Below are positions 244 to 9,339 of a stretch of 34,419 nucleotides of DNA, piece after piece; position 1 is the stretch's first letter; every line of letters begins with the position of its first letter. Origin of the DNA: a virus (Duplodnaviria > Heunggongvirae > Uroviricota > Caudoviricetes); IMG/VR virus record IMGVR_UViG_2671180847_000009. One strand, written 5' to 3'. The notes under the pieces were generated by a model. It did not search any database. It saw only the letters and a list, made by a program, of their open reading frames with translations, and was not told where the DNA came from. A program made the translations under genes and the position numbers.

Positions 244-469
244 ATGGCTTAGTATACGTCTGATTCTTTATTATCGTGCTCATGCGCCAGCCAGCATTCG
301 TAACAGATGTCGTTATACTCCAAGCTGTTCGGCTTACACTTTGGTGTCAATAAGGCGCTATGGCTTTTTTGAAGGCTGGCGATTAGGATTGAGCCGGATT
401 TATCGCTGTCGTCCGCCTAATGGTGGTGCAGATTACCCTCCTCATATTTGTAAATGTCGCAAATCGTGA
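236..469 (+). CDS. YidD-family (haemolytic-domain, membrane protein insertion efficiency factor-like) small protein
   Basis: 77-aa ORF; C-R-Y-T-P-S-C-S-x-Y and C-R/H-P-x-x-G-G-x-D-x-P-P motifs align with E. coli YidD (CRFxPTCSxY ... CHPLHPGGDDPVPP). Confidence 0.55.
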   Translation: MLKWLSIRLILYYRAHAPASIRNRCRYTPSCSAYTLVSIRRYGFFEGWRLGLSRIYRCRPPNGGADYPPHICKCRKS

Positions 470-488
470 GCGCGTAAGAAAAAGAAAA

Positions 489-520
489 CCCGCAGTTTTT
501 ACGCTGCGGGTTTCTGCTTT
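489..520. terminator. Rho-independent terminator (bidirectional hairpin) after the YidD-like gene
   Basis: Perfect 7-bp stem cccgcag/ctgcggg (489-495 / 504-510) followed by T-rich tttctgcttt on + strand and preceded by A-run (T-run on - strand). Confidence 0.55.
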
Positions 521-1004
521 GGGATGTGTATAGGGTGCCTTATCGGCCTTACCCTGGCAACCGATTGACGGGGAAGTTGCCTTCCCCGTCGCGGTTTTCT
601 TACTGTCTACATTGTAAGAACGCCGCAAACTCCGCTCCCCAGAAGCTCATCCGTATCTCACACAGTGAACCGTGTAGCATCCAGATGATGAGGATTGCCG
701 TTACGCAGAACGTAATGGCCGTAAGCGATTTTTGCGACATAGCGCTTGCTCCTTTTTCGGGGAGGCGCTAACCTACGACTTGCGAAGGTTGTATGGCTAG
801 GGCCTCGGGTTAACGTTAAAGTTGACTCGGGGCCTTTCCACATTCGGCCTTCGGGTATTCCCTCCAGCCATCAGCCGAAAGGCACCCGCGCGAATTCTAG
901 CCTGGTTTTTTCCCTTGTTTCAATCCGTTGAGACTTATCAGCCTTCTGATGTAAAATTCCCGACCGCAGACATTATTCAGTCACGCATTTGATACATGCT
1001 TCCG

Positions 1005-1028
1005 CCGGCGTTCGCGCCGGTTTTTTTC
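1005..1028 (+). terminator. Rho-independent terminator, + strand
   Basis: Stem ccggcg/cgccgg with ttcg loop followed by ttttttt (1021-1027). Confidence 0.5.
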
Positions 1029-1503
1029 GTCCTGTTGCTGCATAGATCGTCATGCGCGATCGAGGCGCGGTATTGATCCTTTTTTCAGTTTAATTTTGAC
1101 TCTCAATTTTACGCAGGCCGCGCCGCGTCTGGCTTCGTTGTTTGACGATTTTTTGATGCGATCCTTTCGTGATCGTTTCCCGTCTCGCGTAAAGTATGAA
1201 AACTCTTTTAATATCATGCGGTTTTATTGCCCCTGCCATTTATGCGATCGTAAAAACCACTCTGAAAACTGCAAAAAATTTCAAAGCGTGAAATTTCAGA
1301 TCTCCGCTTTTCCCTCAGTTGCTGCGCGGGCTGGCGGTCAGTTTTGCACGGCAGAAAACTGAAAAAGTGTTTCGACACAAAACCCGCGGGTTGGAGGGGG
1401 TAGCGCGGTTTACGTCACCTCACACTTTACGTCACACCGTTTACGCGGTGTGTGCATACAGCGCCGGAATGGCACGCAGAACGCATTAATCAGGTGGTGG
1501 ATA

Positions 1504-1530
1504 TGAAAAACGCACGGTCGGAACCGTGCG
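1504..1530 (-). terminator. Rho-independent terminator ending the tail operon (minus strand)
   Basis: Stem cgcacggt/accgtgcg (1511-1518/1523-1530) with A5 on + strand (U-run on minus-strand RNA) 40 nt downstream of the 565-aa gene stop. Confidence 0.5.
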
Positions 1531-1570
1531 TTGTTTGATGGGGCGTTTATGTGGGTTTTATGTCGGGAGC

Positions 1571-3268
1571 TCAGGCGATAAGGTCGCCGTATTTTTCGCG
1601 CAGGCTCGTAGCCTGCAGGGCATCTGCGGCAAGTTCGCCGCTGTTCATTGGTGCGCCAGTGTTGTTGTGGGTGTGGTTTGCTGTGTGCGTGGCCAGCAAT
1701 TGAATCAGATCCAGAATATCAATCAACAACGTCAGCAGATTAAGTTCGGATTTTTCCCGTGAGCCACCGCGACCAATAAATACTGTCGGGGCTGTAAACT
1801 TCAGACCGCCGTCCGCCCGGCATGTTCTGCGGCCTCCCACGTTTTCAGTCAGGTCCTGCTCAATTGTGGATATTGTCCCTTTGAGTTTAGTCAGCAAATC
1901 CTGCGCTACCATCTGGATATGCTCGCTGGCTGCGATCGCGTAATGGCCGGTAGTAAGGTGCTCTATTTGTCCTGCCGCCAGCTTGCTGGTTCCCAGAACA
2001 CTGGTTATGTCGTTTGCCCGTACTGTGGTTGTTCTGGTTGTTGTGGTGCGCTCTTCTGCATCACTGTTAATTGTGCGGGTGGCTGACTGCTCCCTGATTT
2101 GCTGGTCTGTTTCTCTGTGCCAGCTTCCGTCAGTCGTGACGCGCTGAAACACTTCTGCGCGCTGTTGCTGCAGTTGTTCGCCGGGCTTTACATCAGGCAG
2201 GTTATGGCCAGCAGGTAAGATTTGCCTGATAACAGGTTTATCCGGGCGCCCTTCAATGTTAGATATTTCCACGATGGTGCCTGCCGGCGGGTAGGCAAAA
2301 CATCCCGCCTCGCTACCAGCCATCGGGACGGGGAGTGGGACTGCCGGGTAAACAGGCGTATCGCTTTTATCGTTGCCGTCCTCATCGAGCAGTTGCACGT
2401 CCACGGCGTAGCGTGGACGGAAGCTGTCGGCCACATCGCCCAGGGTGGCGGATTCCGTTGGTGCAATGACGCGCGCCAGCCTGGTGTGTAGTGTGCCGCT
2501 GGCCAGTTCCGGGAACTGTGTTTCCATCTGTCTGCGTAATGGTGATTTGGAGACAGGGCTGCCCGTGACGGTAAGGCGCTCCCACGTCAGAGTCATTTTC
2601 TCGTTGTTGAGGGCTACGCGGGTAATACGCCCGGTGGGAAGATTCACGCCCGGTCGCACAGTTTCCATGAACATGATGTCGATGCTGTTTCCGCCGCTTT
2701 GCCCGAGAGCGTACTGTTGCGGAATATCCGGCATCGTAATACTGGCAAATCGTGAATCAGCGGCGCTTCCCACAAATACAGAACCGTCCGGCATTGGGTG
2801 CCAGACGTAATCGCTGATACTGAATGCGCGCCCCAGCTGGCTGAGTAGCTGCGTTCCGCTGCCGCTGTGGGTGATGTAGGGGGTTGGTGTGTTGACATAA
2901 TCCGCGTCCGGGGTGATAAAAACGATGCCGCTTTGTCGTCCCAGATTATCTAACACCTCCCGCAACGTCGGGTGTTGCATGGAGCAGGGGAAATCAAAAT
3001 CCAGCACAGCAGCTGCTTCACGGATAAAAAGGCGGCGCGAACCATTTTCGGCGGGTTGGTCGCGTTCAACGTAGCCGGAGAAATAGCGCCAGACTTCACC
3101 GTCACGGCCGAGATCAATTTGTACCATTGCGCCGGCAAGGCTTTTTTCTGGTGACAGATTATTAACAGAAATGAAGCCACGACCGGCAGCATTCAGGGTA
3201 AGAACAAGGCTTATATCGGCAATTTCCACCCGTTCGCCATTAATCATGCAGCGTTGTATCAATTTCAT
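1571..3268 (-). CDS. Phage tail/baseplate protein, 565 aa (possibly central hub or spike; P2 gpD-like by position)
   Basis: Last gene of the late tail operon, start overlaps stop of upstream gene (ATGA coupling); size and position suit a baseplate hub. No motif recognised with certainty. Confidence 0.4.
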   Translation of the reverse strand: MKLIQRCMINGERVEIADISLVLTLNAAGRGFISVNNLSPEKSLAGAMVQIDLGRDGEVWRYFSGYVERDQPAENGSRRLFIREAAAVLDFDFPCSMQHPTLREVLDNLGRQSGIVFITPDADYVNTPTPYITHSGSGTQLLSQLGRAFSISDYVWHPMPDGSVFVGSAADSRFASITMPDIPQQYALGQSGGNSIDIMFMETVRPGVNLPTGRITRVALNNEKMTLTWERLTVTGSPVSKSPLRRQMETQFPELASGTLHTRLARVIAPTESATLGDVADSFRPRYAVDVQLLDEDGNDKSDTPVYPAVPLPVPMAGSEAGCFAYPPAGTIVEISNIEGRPDKPVIRQILPAGHNLPDVKPGEQLQQQRAEVFQRVTTDGSWHRETDQQIREQSATRTINSDAEERTTTTRTTTVRANDITSVLGTSKLAAGQIEHLTTGHYAIAASEHIQMVAQDLLTKLKGTISTIEQDLTENVGGRRTCRADGGLKFTAPTVFIGRGGSREKSELNLLTLLIDILDLIQLLATHTANHTHNNTGAPMNSGELAADALQATSLREKYGDLIA

Positions 3269-3840
3269 GTTTTCCCTTCCTCTTTCACGCTCCCGATGCC
3301 AACAGCATCCAGACCAGAGCCAACGGCATCATTGATTTTTTTCCAGAACGAACTTTGCGTATTCATGCCTTTGTCTGGTGCCTGTTCGCTACCGTTCTGG
3401 GTCTGCTGTCTGGCGATGGTTTTCTGCGAACCGCTGCGTGCGGATGCTTTCTCTGGCACGCTTAATTTTTCCCTGAGAGTAAAGGTAACCTGCCAGTGCA
3501 TTTTTCCCTGTTGTTCCGTGGCATCAATGCCACCAGAAAATACCCCCTGTCGCATATTGATTGCCTTCGCGGTAGCGTTAGCAATGCGATATGTTTTTTT
3601 AGCACCGTTGCTTTCTGTTGCCTCCGCAAGCTGAAAAATACGGGTCAGAATAGCTTCATCATTAAAATCAATAACCCCCGACACGCGCAGCTCTTTAGCC
3701 TTGTTTCCCTGCTGGGCGCTCGTGGTGCTGGTTGACTGTCCGGACATATCTTTGTCCGGTAGTTGCATGGTGGCGCTGACGGTGATGTTGCGCAGCAGAA
3801 TGGCTTCCCCGTCAAGCGCAAGGACAATCATCTGGGTCAT
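3265..3840 (-). CDS. Putative phage tail protein, 191 aa (gpU-like by position)
   Basis: Co-oriented, translationally coupled ORF between the 237-aa ORF and the 565-aa tail protein. Confidence 0.35.
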   Translation of the reverse strand: MTQMIVLALDGEAILLRNITVSATMQLPDKDMSGQSTSTTSAQQGNKAKELRVSGVIDFNDEAILTRIFQLAEATESNGAKKTYRIANATAKAINMRQGVFSGGIDATEQQGKMHWQVTFTLREKLSVPEKASARSGSQKTIARQQTQNGSEQAPDKGMNTQSSFWKKINDAVGSGLDAVGIGSVKEEGKT

Positions 3841-4525
3841 GTAGTGCCTCCCTTAGTGATGAGAGATTATCGCCGACGAACAGCATCACAGCTGTAAAAA
3901 CCCACTCGGGGTGTGGGATGTTTTTTTGTATCAGCACTGCAGCCTGGCTAAGGGCTCCCTTGTAGCAAAAGCGCCACACCGGGCAAAATTTTTGCCGGAG
4001 TGCAGCCTGCTGATCAGCGATTTCCTGTAAGGCTTTATCTCTCGCATTCATGAACTGATGCAGTGATGATGACAATGTTTCCGGTGATGTGGCGGCAGGA
4101 GTGGCTGCCTGTGCAATGGTTGCCGCCAGCGACATGCTGCGAGTGGTCTGTGTCGACAGCATTATCGGTTCCGGAAGTGATGTTGCCGGTCTGGCGGGGA
4201 TTTGCATTCTGCTGATGGCCAGTGAAAGCTGGCTGGAGATCATGCGGGACATTCGTCCCACCTCCGGCAACGGAAATGCGCCTGAAAATTGCCTGGCGAG
4301 TGATAAAAACTCGTCAGCAGAAGGAGCGCAAAATAACAGCGCCACAATGTCCTTTTCTGTGTTTTCTTTCAGATAGGGTAAAAGTGCAGATACAGCATTT
4401 TCGGGGCTGAGATAACGCCCCGATGGTTTGATGTTTCCGGTATTTTCTGACCATGGATGCAGGCAAACCACAGAGCATTTAATGTTCATGGCTGACGGGC
4501 GCAGAATTGCCTTTTCCCATTTCAT
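3812..4525 (-). CDS. Hypothetical protein, 237 aa, unknown function (cargo candidate at end of fibre region)
   Basis: Only long ORF spanning 3841-4521; start overlaps stop of upstream tail-fibre assembly gene; Ala/Ser/Thr/Pro-rich low-complexity middle; no recognisable family. Confidence 0.4.
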   Translation of the reverse strand: MKWEKAILRPSAMNIKCSVVCLHPWSENTGNIKPSGRYLSPENAVSALLPYLKENTEKDIVALLFCAPSADEFLSLARQFSGAFPLPEVGRMSRMISSQLSLAISRMQIPARPATSLPEPIMLSTQTTRSMSLAATIAQAATPAATSPETLSSSLHQFMNARDKALQEIADQQAALRQKFCPVWRFCYKGALSQAAVLIQKNIPHPEWVFTAVMLFVGDNLSSLREALHDPDDCPCA

Positions 4526-5097
4526 TCTGACTCTCCAGCCTGAAAAGCGCGGATGTCGGCAAGATTATTAAGGCTATCCAGCACGTCCTTCATCTGTCGC
4601 TGACGGCGATAAATCTCGTCATTGCGATCGACCTGCGCCTGCGCCATTGCTGCCGCCAGTTCTTCCAGTTCCGGCATCGACAGTTTCACCTGTTGATTAT
4701 CGGCATCACCCCACGCAAGGGTGGTTCGTGCCGTATCGGATTTCGCCGCCATTACTACCGGATAAAGGCGGGCCAGTGAGTCGGGGCCAGCGTTCCATGT
4801 GCGGCCATTCCATTCGAACATGAACGGCTGCGCTTCCTGTTCTGTGCGCCATGCCTCAATTTCTCGTTTTTTAGCGTCCTTTGCTGCTTCCAGCATTTCA
4901 GGCGTAACAGTGAACGGGGCGATTTCGCCCCATTTGCCGCTTTGCAGTTCCTGCCAGATTTGCTGGCCTGTCGTCGCGGTGTCTTCTGGCGTGGCTGTGT
5001 ACGGAAGTGGGTCTTCCATTCCCTCAAACAGCACGTCGCAGTCAATCGCACCGGATTCGGTATAACGGGGACTGGTAATCTCTTTTATCTGCATCAT
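4522..5097 (-). CDS. Tail fibre assembly protein (chaperone), copy 2
   Basis: 191 aa; N-terminal region and acidic C-terminus typical of Tfa/gpG-type chaperones; directly follows a tail-fibre gene. Confidence 0.6.
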   Translation of the reverse strand: MMQIKEITSPRYTESGAIDCDVLFEGMEDPLPYTATPEDTATTGQQIWQELQSGKWGEIAPFTVTPEMLEAAKDAKKREIEAWRTEQEAQPFMFEWNGRTWNAGPDSLARLYPVVMAAKSDTARTTLAWGDADNQQVKLSMPELEELAAAMAQAQVDRNDEIYRRQRQMKDVLDSLNNLADIRAFQAGESE

Positions 5098-6389
5098 GCA
5101 ACCCTCACAAACAAAGAAACTAAGCCCCGGTTATAAAACTTAATATCCGGGCCGCCAGATAAAGCGACATATGTACCAGGCAGGGTATCCCCGTAGACAA
5201 ATGACCTCGCAGCAGCACTAAATCCTGACGTGCGATACTCCGCTTCAAAGACCACCTGCCGGAGTCTTGAGCCTGACACGCCTTGTGCACGAAGTAACGT
5301 AACCTCACTGCTGCCATCGTCCGGTAGGTATGCAGCAAGAACCAGGCCTCCGGGGAACGGAGGACGCTTTGATGTATTTTCTGTTGCATACAACAGTTGC
5401 ATCAGGCGCTTACGTGACCAGAACAACCGCGACCATGCTTTTGGCAGGTCTGACGGACGCATGGATTTTTTAACCAGTACCTGATATTTCGCAGGACCTT
5501 CACCGAATCCCCCACTGTATTCTGCATCACCATGAAACGTTATCCACCGACGCGCTTCTGCTTCAATACCGCCAGAGTCAATTCCGTATCGTATGTCTAT
5601 ATCCACAAGTCCACGGAAATAAGGTTGCCCCATGTCATACGCAATGATGGGATTATACGAAGTGCTACTCCCTTCAGATTGTGTTACCGCGTAACGTCCG
5701 GGGGTGACTTCGAACACCCATTTCAGAAATTCGGCGGGGCCATTTTGCGCGCTGAAATACACGACTTCCGACGAAGAGAATAAATGCCCGTATCCGAATG
5801 CACCGGGTAACGCCAGACGGCCTGCGGTGCGGTCGTAGATATCGCTCTGAACATCAAGCAAAGCAGCACCTTTCAACCCCAGATTGTCTCGGGATTCCTG
5901 TTGCGCCTCTTCCCCCTCTGCTGCAATTTCTGACAGTCGGTTAGGAGCTTTCAGCATTGATTTCAGCTCGGGGGTAATATCCACCTGCCAGCTCTGTGGA
6001 GGAACGGTAATTTGCGCAGCCTGAGCAATGCCGCTGTATATAATCGTGAAATTACGAATAAGTGACTCGCCAGTATGTTTCTGGCGAACAGGGGTTTTTA
6101 TTACGCCGCACAGTGTTCTGCTGGCCTGATGGATGAGGCAAATCCAGTCATAGCTGAATGCACAGCCATCAGGAACAACTGCGCTACACACAATATTGTT
6201 CGGGTTTAACTGGCCATAGGTCAGTTCATTCACAGCATATGTGATTTTTTCTTCCGGAACGGTATTATCTTCGCGCGTTGGTTCCCGCTCCATCAGAGCA
6301 AAAATAATAGCGTCAGGGCGTGCAGGTAAATTACTGGCTGCGCATTCAGCAACCCACTTTTCAAATGCTTTCGTCAACAGTGCGCTCAT
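5094..6389 (-). CDS. Tail fibre protein, second paralogue (431 aa)
   Basis: N-terminal ~150 aa shares architecture with the N-terminus of the 584-aa fibre (W-x-A-x-x-x-S/N-x-x-P-A-R-P-D, ...L-I-R-N/T-F); C-terminus is different. Confidence 0.55.
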   Translation of the reverse strand: MSALLTKAFEKWVAECAASNLPARPDAIIFALMEREPTREDNTVPEEKITYAVNELTYGQLNPNNIVCSAVVPDGCAFSYDWICLIHQASRTLCGVIKTPVRQKHTGESLIRNFTIIYSGIAQAAQITVPPQSWQVDITPELKSMLKAPNRLSEIAAEGEEAQQESRDNLGLKGAALLDVQSDIYDRTAGRLALPGAFGYGHLFSSSEVVYFSAQNGPAEFLKWVFEVTPGRYAVTQSEGSSTSYNPIIAYDMGQPYFRGLVDIDIRYGIDSGGIEAEARRWITFHGDAEYSGGFGEGPAKYQVLVKKSMRPSDLPKAWSRLFWSRKRLMQLLYATENTSKRPPFPGGLVLAAYLPDDGSSEVTLLRAQGVSGSRLRQVVFEAEYRTSGFSAAARSFVYGDTLPGTYVALSGGPDIKFYNRGLVSLFVRVA

Positions 6390-6395
6390 TACTTC

Positions 6396-6950
6396 TTAAT
6401 TCTCGCTAATGTTCTGCGGTAATTCTGGCCATACAATCGCGGCATACGATGCTTTATCTGTAACCTGACTGAAAGTCATCTGCTGTAGTGCTTTTGCATA
6501 AATACGGCATGCTTTCAGTTTTTCCCTGTCTTCGTCACTGATTAATCCCAGCAGCAGGTCTTTTTCCCATTCGCTGGTCATGATGCTGGCCCGTTGTAAC
6601 AGGGCATCGCGTTCATCTTCCGCTTTAAGTTTGTAGTCGAAGATAAAATTGCCATCGCGGTAGAACCAGTAACCCGACGCCTCAATGCGACGATTGGCGG
6701 TAATATCCGGTAGCTCAATCACGCTTTTATTTTCCGGGCAGATTGAGGTGATGTCTTTTCCGACCCAGACCACTTCGCCGGTTTCAACATAAATAACTTT
6801 CAGGGTGTCTGGCAGAAATTTTTCCTGGGCTTCGTGCCATTCCTGGCCATCCTCTGAGAACAACCACAATAAAAATTTATGCTGTCGCGCCAGCTGGTAT
6901 TGCTCAATTGTTTTAGGGTTTTGTACCGTAAGATTTTTTAAGTGCATCAT
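6396..6950 (-). CDS. Tail fibre assembly protein (chaperone), copy 1
   Basis: 184 aa, follows the long fibre gene; Tfa-like sequence features. Confidence 0.6.
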   Translation of the reverse strand: MMHLKNLTVQNPKTIEQYQLARQHKFLLWLFSEDGQEWHEAQEKFLPDTLKVIYVETGEVVWVGKDITSICPENKSVIELPDITANRRIEASGYWFYRDGNFIFDYKLKAEDERDALLQRASIMTSEWEKDLLLGLISDEDREKLKACRIYAKALQQMTFSQVTDKASYAAIVWPELPQNISEN

Positions 6951-6952
6951 AA

Positions 6953-8707
6953 TTACAAACTCGCTACATTCCGCCAGACGCCATTAATCAGAACCTGCAC
7001 CGGGCGGGCATTGGCCCAGTCCATACTTTCACCACCATCAAGACCGCTGATAAGGTGACCTGATGGTGCGTTCCCGCCACGCCCAATACCAATGGCACTG
7101 CCCAGACGCACATCCTGTACACCGCCTGTTTTGGTCTGATAGCGGGCATCAAAGTTTCCGTAGTCTGACGGTGTTACCCGTCCTGAAACATTCACTGCCC
7201 GGTTACTTTGTAACGCGCCATTCTGAAAACGGAATACGTGCTGACCATTGGCATAAACATCCAGCAGGCCGTCACCATTCTGTTTCAGGCCGGTATCGTT
7301 ATCCCCGAAAGCAATTGAGTTTCCGCCCAGCGCGTTCTGAACGCCGATACCTAATGCACCGTTTACTTTCGAACCGCCGCCAACAGATACCGGGTGAGAC
7401 ATCGAGACTTCACCCGTCCGCAGGTTAATGCTGAATGGTCGCAGGGGGCCAATATCGCCGTTTTCACCCTGATTTTCCTGTGTGGGAATAAGATGCAGGC
7501 ACTCTTCAGAGCGACGAAAAATCAGGCCAAAAGCTTCGTTGAAAATCCTCAGTGCATTAACGCCACGGATTTTCAGCTCCCCGGTCATGGTGTCGCCAGC
7601 GCGTTGAACGGCGCTTTCAGCTTTATCAACGGTGGGTTTCAGTCCGACGTTTTCAATAAACAGCGGTTTATTGGGAATGTCGCTGCCGTTGCGATTTTTC
7701 GCAAGACGTGCGTTGGCGTTATCCATTGCGATTTTTACCGCTTTTGACGTGGCGGCGCGGTCTTCTGCATCGCTGTCGGTGGCGTTGCTGTACTGCGCAA
7801 AGCCTTTTTCGGTCAGCGTGGCATCCGGGTGTCTGCGGGATTTTTCGTGTTCTGCCAGCGCGTTGCTTTGCTCTTCGTCGGGCGTCTGTGGGCGTAAATC
7901 CTGTGGGCCACCTGCTGTCAGTTTTGCAAGTGGCGCGACAAAGTGTTGGAAACCGTTCCCGTCTGTATAGGGCGCGTGTTCCTTGCGAGCGCAGAACGTA
8001 AAAACGGTGCTCCATTCGCCGGTAACAAATCCCTGCCAGCTTGCATCAATCCAGAGGGTATCCCCGACCGCAGCCGGCAGGCTGTAAGGTTCGCGCAGGC
8101 TGACGCGCAGACCTCCCACATACCCGATGCCGGCGGCAACAGTGGCGGTACCATCCTGATAGCTGACCTGAAAACCATCCCCCAGAAAAGCGGCTTCACC
8201 GTAGTGATCAAACGCCAGCAGCCGGCGGGCTTCATCCATTCCCGCAAGACGGGCAGTGAAATCAATCTGCCAGACATCAGCACTGACATCGATATGCATT
8301 GCTGCTGCAGCGCCGTCAAACTCCATGGAAAATGTGCGGATCAGGTTGTTTCCCTGCACGCCGTTCGCTGTTTTAATTTTTTGCTGACGAGGTGTGTGTG
8401 CAATCATGCAGAGCACGCCGCTTTCTTCGTTCAGCAGACCGATCCAGTTGTATTCGAAGTCGCCGACTGTCGTGTCCAGAATGATGGAAAACGCGGTCGC
8501 GTTCGGCGACAGGAGGCCGTACTGGGTGACCGGCGCACGATACTGAATCATGGATTCATCAGGGAGTATCTCATCGCGGGGGATCTCTGCGGATTCATCC
8601 TGTCCCGGAATATATGCAAAAACAAATGTATCCGGGCGCGCAGGTTTTCCACTGATGATTTGATTTGCGCACCAGTGTTCGTACTGTTCAGTAATAATCG
8701 TGCTCAT
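6953..8707 (-). CDS. Tail fibre protein (584 aa, P2 gpH-like)
   Basis: Conserved phage tail-collar N-terminus; Gly-rich C-terminal region typical of fibre tips; followed by a Tfa gene. Confidence 0.65.
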   Translation of the reverse strand: MSTIITEQYEHWCANQIISGKPARPDTFVFAYIPGQDESAEIPRDEILPDESMIQYRAPVTQYGLLSPNATAFSIILDTTVGDFEYNWIGLLNEESGVLCMIAHTPRQQKIKTANGVQGNNLIRTFSMEFDGAAAAMHIDVSADVWQIDFTARLAGMDEARRLLAFDHYGEAAFLGDGFQVSYQDGTATVAAGIGYVGGLRVSLREPYSLPAAVGDTLWIDASWQGFVTGEWSTVFTFCARKEHAPYTDGNGFQHFVAPLAKLTAGGPQDLRPQTPDEEQSNALAEHEKSRRHPDATLTEKGFAQYSNATDSDAEDRAATSKAVKIAMDNANARLAKNRNGSDIPNKPLFIENVGLKPTVDKAESAVQRAGDTMTGELKIRGVNALRIFNEAFGLIFRRSEECLHLIPTQENQGENGDIGPLRPFSINLRTGEVSMSHPVSVGGGSKVNGALGIGVQNALGGNSIAFGDNDTGLKQNGDGLLDVYANGQHVFRFQNGALQSNRAVNVSGRVTPSDYGNFDARYQTKTGGVQDVRLGSAIGIGRGGNAPSGHLISGLDGGESMDWANARPVQVLINGVWRNVASL

Positions 8708-9339
8708 GCTTCATCTGCCTGTAATGTGTAATGTTCCACGGACAGGCCGTAATGTCCTGCCTGTAGCGAAGCGGTTAACCAGATGGTGTCCTTTCTCACC
8801 GTTGCTTCTGCTGTGTGATACCTGTAATGGCCATCGAATGTGCCGGCTGTCAGCCGGGCAGTGGTTGTATTGATTACCTGAAAGAAATAGCGCCTGCAGG
8901 TACGACCATACTGGCGCACGAGCTGCATCATCAGCGCGTTGTTTTCACTTAACTGGGTGTCATTAATGCGCAGTAAAATAACGTCCCAGTCATGCTGCAG
9001 TTGCCGTTCCAGTGTTTTAACGTCTCCCACGCCAAGACGCTTAAAGATGCGTTCGAAGCCGGCGCGTTCGCCAGAGTCCTGAGCGTTAATAAACGCGTGT
9101 TTCACTCTTAAGCGAAATAACGAAACCGGCTCACCTTTAAATCGGGTGATATTGCGCTGATAAGCCAGCAGGTTAAGTAAAGGCTCTGCGCAGGTGTCGA
9201 CATCAATCTGCTGTAGTGGCCACGTCAGCCAGCTGTATACCTTTTCCCAGTAGCGATGCGATGAATGTGCCAGCGTTAACGGCTCGCCTTTATTCATCCA
9301 GGTGGGGAGCGGAAATTCAGGGATCTCCGGAAGTTTCAC
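8704..9339 (-). CDS. Baseplate/tail protein (P2 gpI-like), 211 aa
   Basis: Position between baseplate J-like gene and tail fibre gene, overlapping start/stop coupling. Confidence 0.45.
   Translation of the reverse strand: MKLPEIPEFPLPTWMNKGEPLTLAHSSHRYWEKVYSWLTWPLQQIDVDTCAEPLLNLLAYQRNITRFKGEPVSLFRLRVKHAFINAQDSGERAGFERIFKRLGVGDVKTLERQLQHDWDVILLRINDTQLSENNALMMQLVRQYGRTCRRYFFQVINTTTARLTAGTFDGHYRYHTAEATVRKDTIWLTASLQAGHYGLSVEHYTLQADEA

Follow-up and report, generated by a model that had tools for sequence, protein, structure and literature searches.

We analysed a 34,419-nucleotide stretch of viral DNA (IMG/VR record IMGVR_UViG_2671180847_000009; hereafter the window, numbered from its first letter), which on sequence grounds is a P2/HP1-type (Peduoviridae-like) Escherichia prophage of about 33 kb, with its closest match in E. 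coli ETEC1716 (96% over the tail region, with an identical layout). The window carries two tail-fibre genes in tandem, each followed by its own helper gene: fibre 1 with Tfa1 in a first slot, and fibre 2 with Chap2 in a second. We consider it probable (roughly 60%) that both fibres are made, that each is served by its own chaperone and docks through a tail-collar domain, and that virions of this prophage lineage, to which the extra fibre slot is specific, would carry two receptor specificities.

Two fibre modules lie in one apparent operon

The two modules occupy positions 4522-8707 on the minus strand as four co-oriented, tightly packed open reading frames (ORFs) of 584, 184, 431 and 191 amino acids (aa). 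A preliminary description of this DNA had proposed two complete fibre-plus-helper modules in tandem, and all four ORFs lie exactly where it had placed them. Their features are as follows.

6953..8707, minus strand: fibre 1 (584 aa)
fibre 1 aa 3-157, minus strand: tail-collar anchor (PF12571; 102.6 bits against a cut-off of 23, E 2.5e-29)
fibre 1 aa 297-338, minus strand: shaft with a Phage_fiber_2 repeat (PF03406, E 6e-16)
fibre 1 aa ~294-583, minus strand: Mu S-like receptor-binding tip (PDB 5yvq_A, E 1.5e-39)
6396..6950, minus strand: Tfa1, Mu U-type assembly chaperone (184 aa; PF02413, E 8e-21, 75 bits against a cut-off of 22.1)
5094..6389, minus strand: fibre 2 (431 aa)
5960..6389, minus strand: fibre 2 anchor, aa 1 to about 143, a paralogous tail-collar domain (PF12571)
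5094..5959, minus strand: fibre 2 stem and distal tip, aa about 144-431, a candidate exchangeable receptor-binding module (phrog_2636)
4522..5097, minus strand: Chap2 (191 aa)
Chap2 aa 1-53, minus strand: predicted small N-terminal beta/alpha domain
Chap2 aa 71-175, minus strand: DUF4376 domain (PF14301; 60.8 bits against a cut-off of 25, E 1.9e-16)

The operon runs in the order tape measure, DUF2590, gpJ, gpI, fibre 1, Tfa1, fibre 2, Chap2, orf33-like, HP1_ORF34 (PF25759) and an orf35-like hub/spike gene. The gpI stop overlaps the fibre 1 start, only 2 nucleotides (nt) separate fibre 1 from Tfa1 and 6 nt separate Tfa1 from fibre 2, and fibre 2 and Chap2, like Chap2 and the orf33-like gene, overlap in an ATGA; a GAGGG Shine-Dalgarno sequence stands 5′ of the Chap2 start. 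Between positions 1000 and 11000 no sigma-70-like promoter site was predicted, where 8 were expected by chance, and the best minus-strand terminator-like hairpin is at 1532-1509, just past the orf35-like gene. We infer that fibre 2 and Chap2 are co-transcribed with the downstream baseplate genes. Since no internal promoter is predicted and conserved baseplate genes follow both modules, both are probably expressed.

We also considered an invertible fibre switch of the Mu G or P1 C segment type. A tblastn search of the window with a Hin query gave a best E value of 2.2, and the inverted repeats in 1000-10000 did not go beyond chance (the best was a 28-nt pair, 75% complementary). With neither a Hin-like ORF nor significant inverted repeats, and with all four ORFs on the minus strand, this candidate was rejected, in agreement with the earlier view that the co-oriented modules are not an invertible switch.

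The two fibres share an anchor family and carry different tips

BLASTP aligns the N-termini of fibres 1 and 2 at 35% identity over 177 aa (E 2e-24), and no similarity is detectable past about residue 175. Both N-termini match the tail-collar family PF12571; the fibre 2 match covers aa 3-142 with 43.6 bits against a cut-off of 23 (E 3.8e-11). The related N-terminal domains and unrelated C-terminal regions described earlier were thereby recovered.

The first 160 aa of fibre 1 are 47% identical to Salmonella SI7 gp20 and 40% identical to Haemophilus HP1 orf31, and these identities make the slot-1 anchors orthologous to the canonical fibre; fibre 1 is accordingly assigned as the orthologue of the single fibre of HP1-like phages. 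Its tip (aa 330-584) is 91% identical in protein to phiP27 L54. Directly downstream, Tfa1 matches Mu U (PDB 5yvq_B, E 2.3e-34) and phrog_136 (E 6e-53); by its PF02413 domain, its Mu U homology and its position after a fibre gene, it is a true Tfa (Caudo_TAP).

The C-terminal region of fibre 2 falls in phrog_2636, annotated 'tail fiber protein' (E 2.6e-75), and its tip shares 89% protein identity and 93% DNA identity with the C-terminal end of phiP27 L56. The same tip family is also borne by side tail fibres of the PF08400 (lambda-Stf) type. Beyond the anchor, fibre 2 has no Pfam family at E<=10 and no PDB sequence match. The 431-aa ORF was checked for membership in a non-fibre family, and none was found: its tip belongs to phrog_2636 and to no other Pfam family. 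Only 111 of 1.84 billion protein cluster representatives match this region at E<=1e-3, so its family is small. Many of these 111 matches are limited to the first ~100 residues, which points to a separable stem. At least 74 protein clusters hold intact, near-full-length relatives of fibre 2 of ~430 aa.

An AlphaFold2 monomer model of fibre 2 has a mean predicted local distance difference test (pLDDT) score of 62, and about 80 for aa 180-431. A Foldseek search with this model found no relative in the PDB (best E 0.35); the model represents a single chain of a presumed trimer, so we do not claim the tip as a new fold. NCBIfam gave no names for any of the four proteins.

The second helper is a DUF4376-class protein and not a Tfa

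The preliminary description had placed a Tfa-type helper after each fibre. This holds for the 184-aa Tfa1; the 191-aa Chap2 carries PF14301 instead and also matches phrog_1141 (E 6e-89). Assignment of Chap2 as a Tfa was rejected, since it has no PF02413 match even at E<=10 and neither homology nor a similar fold to Tfa was detected. We therefore class it by its domain as a DUF4376-class tail-fibre chaperone, with the chaperone function itself suggested by analogy. In direct comparison of the two helpers, BLASTP gave E 0.03. Chap2 and Tfa profiles, both of them shallow, scored 99.6% in hhalign while gp55 of phage phiSTEC1589-Stx1c was present in both alignments and 0.5% once it was removed, and we regard the higher score as an artefact of this shared hybrid sequence; with such shallow profiles the lower score is by itself a weak negative.

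The gp55 protein (3252-3923 in its locus, L091) is a natural hybrid, with a Mu U-like Tfa N-terminal domain and a DUF4376 C-terminal domain. Its N-terminal half is 35% identical to Tfa1 aa 2-114 and its C-terminal half 38% identical to Chap2 aa 53-188; it is probably phrog_11571, whose matches to Tfa1 and Chap2 lie in these same halves. To judge from this sequence, gp55 shows that the Tfa and DUF4376 chaperone classes swap domains, and that DUF4376 can replace the conserved C-terminal domain of Tfa.

From a shallow alignment, AlphaFold2 gave one confident Chap2 model out of five (pLDDT 86.9, against 64-69 for the others), in which the DUF4376 domain has a predicted helix-hairpin-helix-hairpin-helix topology. 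A DUF4376 gene directly downstream of a fibre gene is also found in the distant phages Av-05, PhiR5_2 and phiSTEC1589. DUF4376 proteins are needed for fibre function in Alteromonas phage V22 (PMC7289586) and in the Campylobacter CJIE1 prophage (PMC7882524), and in Alteromonas phage A5 the DUF4376 protein binds the fibre tip as a 'cap' (PMC10579305).

As a separate observation, Chap2 aa 2-80 (4858-5094, minus strand) are 33-36% identical to the start of 'tail fiber component' genes of PB1-like Pseudomonas phages, and Pseudomonas phages make up 153 of the 192 phage records that match this N-terminal domain.

The second slot is kept across the prophage lineage

We compared the window with eight further loci that have the same backbone: L002-L005, L013, L021 and L024 (L013, L021 and L024 from IMG/VR), and L092 from E. 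albertii. The slot-2 fibre is present in all eight, and both fibre genes or both anchors are present in seven, counting L013, where slot 1 is represented by Tfa1 only. In L003 (E. coli 58-3) the slot-2 fibre is the only one of the two fibres that is kept. An IS1A element at 11535-12232 truncates this prophage inside the slot-2 fibre, and the remnant consists of the slot-2 fibre, orf33-35 and Hok.

Within the lineage, slot-1 anchors share 99% identity, or 91% in the case of L024. The slot-2 anchors form a clade of their own, 69-96% identical within the lineage (the window anchor is 69-89% identical to those of L003-L005), and are 27-35% identical to the slot-1, SI7 and HP1 anchors (27-33% for the window anchor against the SI7 and HP1 fibres). 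Because the two anchors are only 35% identical and those of slot 2 form a separate clade, we rejected a recent duplication of the fibre 1 anchor as the origin of the fibre 2 anchor. Slot-2 tips are highly varied. Where a DUF4376 partner is present, the tip is that of the window or a relative with only 32-47% identity to it; slot-2 fibres without such a partner occur in L005 (619 aa), in L003 (514 aa) and in L004, where the fibre (4524-6464) is split into a 285-aa anchor ORF and a 352-aa ORF without a Pfam match, with no chaperone gene after them. L092 has no Chap2 homologue. In a scan of species-representative genomes with the fibre 2 anchor, a method that reaches close relatives only, E. albertii was the only species found. 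By these comparisons, fibre 2 is assigned to an extra slot that is specific to this lineage and has a paralogous tail-collar anchor.

The ratio of nonsynonymous to synonymous substitution rates (dN/dS) is 0.07-0.09 for fibre 1; in the second module it is 0.11 in the fibre 2 anchor, 0.24 in the tip and 0.17-0.23 in Chap2, so all parts of both modules look functional and under purifying selection. In the fibre 2 anchor, synonymous divergence (dS) between lineage members has reached saturation (1.35-1.7), compared with 0.12 in the fibre 1 anchor; the slot-2 anchor alleles are thus old. The preliminary description had left a choice between two displayed receptor-binding proteins and the recent acquisition of one fibre. 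The former is the better alternative, with the slot in 8/8 loci, dN/dS of 0.11-0.24 and no predicted internal promoter.

Tip and chaperone move as a cassette

DNA homology between the window and phiP27 falls into two blocks. The first, at 4598-5959, covers Chap2 and fibre 2 from aa 144 (93%), and the second, at 6427-7656, covers Tfa1 and the fibre 1 tip, which move together (90%). The fibre anchors lie outside this homology; phiP27 L56 carries PF08400 and the L54 N-terminus is unrelated. Against the lineage relatives, homology is lost at the orf33 start (4483-4521) and regained at the junction between the fibre 2 anchor and tip (about 5794-5976), with a second break inside the fibre 1 tip. The two slots thus exchange at clean boundaries that are independent of each other.

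We surveyed 80 IMG/VR viral loci that carry a Chap2 homologue. A fibre-2-type tip lies directly upstream of the Chap2 homologue in 73 of the 80, 24 are single Stf-type modules, and about 41 have a tandem arrangement (a Mu-S-like tip and/or Tfa, then a second fibre, then DUF4376), in which fibre 2 bears a different anchor than in the window. The tandem pairing is thus common in E. coli prophages, being found in about half of the 80 loci, and is not peculiar to this phage.

Taken together, these comparisons show that the fibre 2 tip and the DUF4376 chaperone travel as one exchangeable cassette. The notion of a recently acquired fibre therefore stands for this cassette, which is 93% identical in DNA to phiP27, and fails for the slot and its anchor, where dS is saturated. 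Outside the lineage, a phiP27-type double fibre cassette with 90.8% DNA identity was seen in Actinobacillus phage vB_Apl-pPE4 (PP818812.1, 42019-45922). The recorded host is Actinobacillus pleuropneumoniae, which would mean either a cross-family transfer or a mix-up of host or assembly.

Flanking baseplate genes

The genes on either side of the two modules are listed below.

8704..9339, minus strand: P2 gpI-like baseplate protein, upstream flank (PF09684, E 7e-5; phrog_1228, E 9e-82)
3812..4525, minus strand: HP1 orf33-like protein of 237 aa, downstream flank and slot-2 recombination boundary (assigned by sequence identity)
3265-3840, minus strand: HP1 orf34-like protein (PF25759, E 1e-53)
1571-3268, minus strand: orf35-like hub/spike baseplate protein of 565 aa, closing the operon (phrog_2258, E 3e-232)

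The gpI-like protein is 52% identical to SI7 gp19 and is likely part of the fibre docking site. The orf33-like protein (30% identical to SI7 gp22 and 25% to HP1 orf33) is the most variable backbone protein in the lineage, at 78-100% identity, and its identity rises and falls with fibre 2 anchor identity; in most loci gpI, gpJ and the fibre 1 anchor are 98-100% identical. It is possible that the orf33-like protein is the docking partner of fibre 2, or the pattern may be mere linkage. The orf35-like protein has weak matches to the VgrG/gp5 oligonucleotide/oligosaccharide-binding (OB) fold and to the gp5 C-terminal trimerisation domain, and is probably a fused hub/spike; one of its RefSeq relatives is annotated as a Vgr family protein of the type VI secretion system. 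Just past the tail end of the prophage, a 46-aa ORF at 600-740 (minus strand; MSQKSLTAITFCVTAILIIWMLHGSLCEIR...) resembles a Hok/Gef-type membrane toxin, and relatives have the annotation 'Hok/Gef family protein' at the aligned position.

Docking of the second fibre

In the mechanism that we propose, both fibres would be made in every late infection, since their genes precede the baseplate genes in what looks like a single transcription unit. Each would then be trimerised from its C-terminus by its own chaperone and plugged into the baseplate through its tail-collar domain; virions would carry two receptor specificities without an inversion switch, and recombination between conserved flanks could re-arm either slot independently of the other. 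In the R2 pyocin fibre the tail-collar domain serves as the anchor, according to Williams 2008 as cited in PMC7882524. We would guess that the slot-2 anchor, divergent as it is, docks on a putative surface other than that used by fibre 1. It is possible, and we suggest it only tentatively, that the lineage evolved a second, structurally distinct fibre socket, with the slot-2 anchor on a different baseplate partner (possibly the orf33 protein), giving two full exchangeable fibre sets of which the second is folded or capped by a non-Tfa chaperone.

Several points weigh against two docked fibres. P2/HP1-type baseplates are known to have one fibre socket per wedge, which makes the second docking site hypothetical and means that the fibres could compete for one socket. 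Second fibres might also persist without a matching socket, because phiP27-type prophages combine this cassette, on a lambda-Stf anchor, with a Mu-like tail. Slot 2 is heterogeneous, since some members (L005, L092) have a slot-2 fibre without a chaperone gene. Among the 50,697 records of a phage collection there was no isolated phage with two slot-2-type anchors (one place per record), and for that reason the lineage is known only as prophages. Finally, the fibre 2 anchor was modelled poorly (pLDDT <50 for aa 19-156) in the monomer of what is presumed to be a trimer.

The strongest alternative, which we still regard as unlikely, is that both fibres compete for the same six baseplate sockets and yield mosaic or mixed virions, a form of bet-hedging of receptor specificity. 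The two anchors are of one Pfam family, and their alignment, at 35% identity, runs over the full length of both. In L004, L005 and L092, gpI, gpJ and the fibre 1 anchor stay at 98-100% identity while the fibre 2 anchor varies to 73-74%, so there is no visible co-variation of gpI or gpJ with a second partner. Nor do gpI and gpJ have an obvious extra domain relative to single-fibre SI7 (211 against 197 aa and 395 against 394 aa, respectively). A paralogue that is held distinct at 35% identity under purifying selection, with saturated dS, nevertheless suggests a specialised interface, and the tracking of the fibre 2 anchor by orf33 identity fits a different partner, or linkage.

It is improbable that the second module is a passenger or relic, that is, a by-product of recombination carried along with the fibre 1 tip and Tfa cassette and either expressed and not incorporated or irrelevant. 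Such a reading would draw on the sharing of the four-gene block, minus its anchors, with phiP27 at 90-93% DNA identity, on the PF08400 lambda-Stf anchor that the second fibre bears on a Mu-like tail in phiP27-type prophages, and on the frequency of tandem blocks (about 41/80 loci). In this lineage, however, a tail-collar anchor that matches the baseplate type of the host phage has taken the place of the foreign Stf anchor. The presence of the slot with varied tips in all eight further loci, the dN/dS values of 0.11-0.24, the at least 74 protein clusters of intact ~430-aa relatives and the clean module junctions at the slot boundaries also argue against a passenger.

A branched fibre, in which fibre 2 docks on fibre 1 or its tip-bound Tfa and not on the baseplate, as in multi-tailspike phages, is very improbable: PF12571 is known as a baseplate anchor and in no other role, fibre 1 tips and Tfa vary in the lineage (61-98%) with no matching change in the fibre 2 anchor, and phiP27 combines the same Tfa and tip with an entirely different second-fibre anchor (PF08400). 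These points stand against the retention of Tfa on the mature Mu fibre (PMC10579305), the frequent joint inheritance of the two modules across different tail types, and the shortness of fibre 2, with a stem of about 100 aa between its anchor and its tip.

Use of the two slots

We prefer the reading in which fibre 2 would use a second socket and both fibres would be displayed. The two slots would then offer an explanation of how these prophages can hedge between receptors with no inversion switch. Phages and tailocins with P2-type baseplates are the main chassis for retargeting by fibre swapping. A lineage with two swappable slots would offer fusion junctions at about aa 140-144 in fibre 2 and about aa 330-350 in fibre 1, and would supply a second anchor together with a pairing rule, in which the fibre 2 tip family goes with a DUF4376 chaperone. 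Beyond the junctions and the pairing rule, this is ordinary mosaic phage biology and a fairly ordinary host-range arrangement.

Comparison with known systems

There are precedents for phages with two receptor-binding proteins, for tandem fibre-chaperone pairs and for DUF4376 chaperones; the fibre cassette is already annotated in phiP27, and the genes are generically annotated in RefSeq E. coli genomes. In a limited literature search, we found no description of an HP1-type lineage with a dedicated second slot and a paralogous tail-collar anchor, of a second slot paired with a non-Tfa chaperone, or of two slots exchanged independently.

One close arrangement is that of phiP27 L54-L57 (NC_003356) and phiP27-type E. 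coli prophages, which have the same order of fibre, Tfa, fibre and DUF4376 gene; phiP27 is 90-93% identical to the window in DNA over both tip-plus-helper blocks. In contrast to the window, phiP27 has a Mu-like baseplate, and the N-termini of L54 and L56 are unrelated to each other and to those of the window: L56 has the lambda-Stf anchor PF08400, whereas both window fibres have tail-collar anchors. Lambdoid side tail fibres share the second module only. Rac-SA53 tail3/tail4 is 96% identical to the window in DNA over the fibre 2 tip and the DUF4376 chaperone, and SerU-LTIIb stf2 is 86% identical in DNA over the chaperone gene alone; unlike the window, these modules have a lambda-Stf anchor, a siphovirus tail and one fibre module.

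The DUF4376 chaperones V22 gp27, A5 gp9 and the partner of the CJIE1 H-fibre resemble Chap2 in having PF14301 in the C-terminal half, a length of roughly 190-240 aa and a gene immediately downstream of the fibre gene. They are likened to Chap2 through the shared Pfam domain alone, and the N-terminal domain and the cognate tip differ. The CJIE1 partner fibre has, like fibre 2, a tail-collar anchor (DUF3751, equivalent to PF12571; PMC7882524).

The Mu S and U proteins are homologues of the fibre 1 tip and Tfa1, and both Mu and the window supply two alternative receptor-binding tips. Mu swaps its tips through Gin-mediated inversion on one constant anchor. The window differs from the Mu and P1 G/C segments in its co-oriented genes, in having an anchor of its own on each fibre, and in that no invertase or inverted repeats were found, so that both window fibres can be made at once. 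HP1 and SI7 share with the window the backbone order tape measure, DUF2590, gpJ, gpI, fibre, Tfa, orf33, orf34 and orf35, with backbone proteins 25-60% identical to those of the window. Between the gpI-like gene and orf33 they have one fibre and its Tfa, whereas in the window lineage a second fibre, in the window with its chaperone, is inserted between Tfa and orf33.

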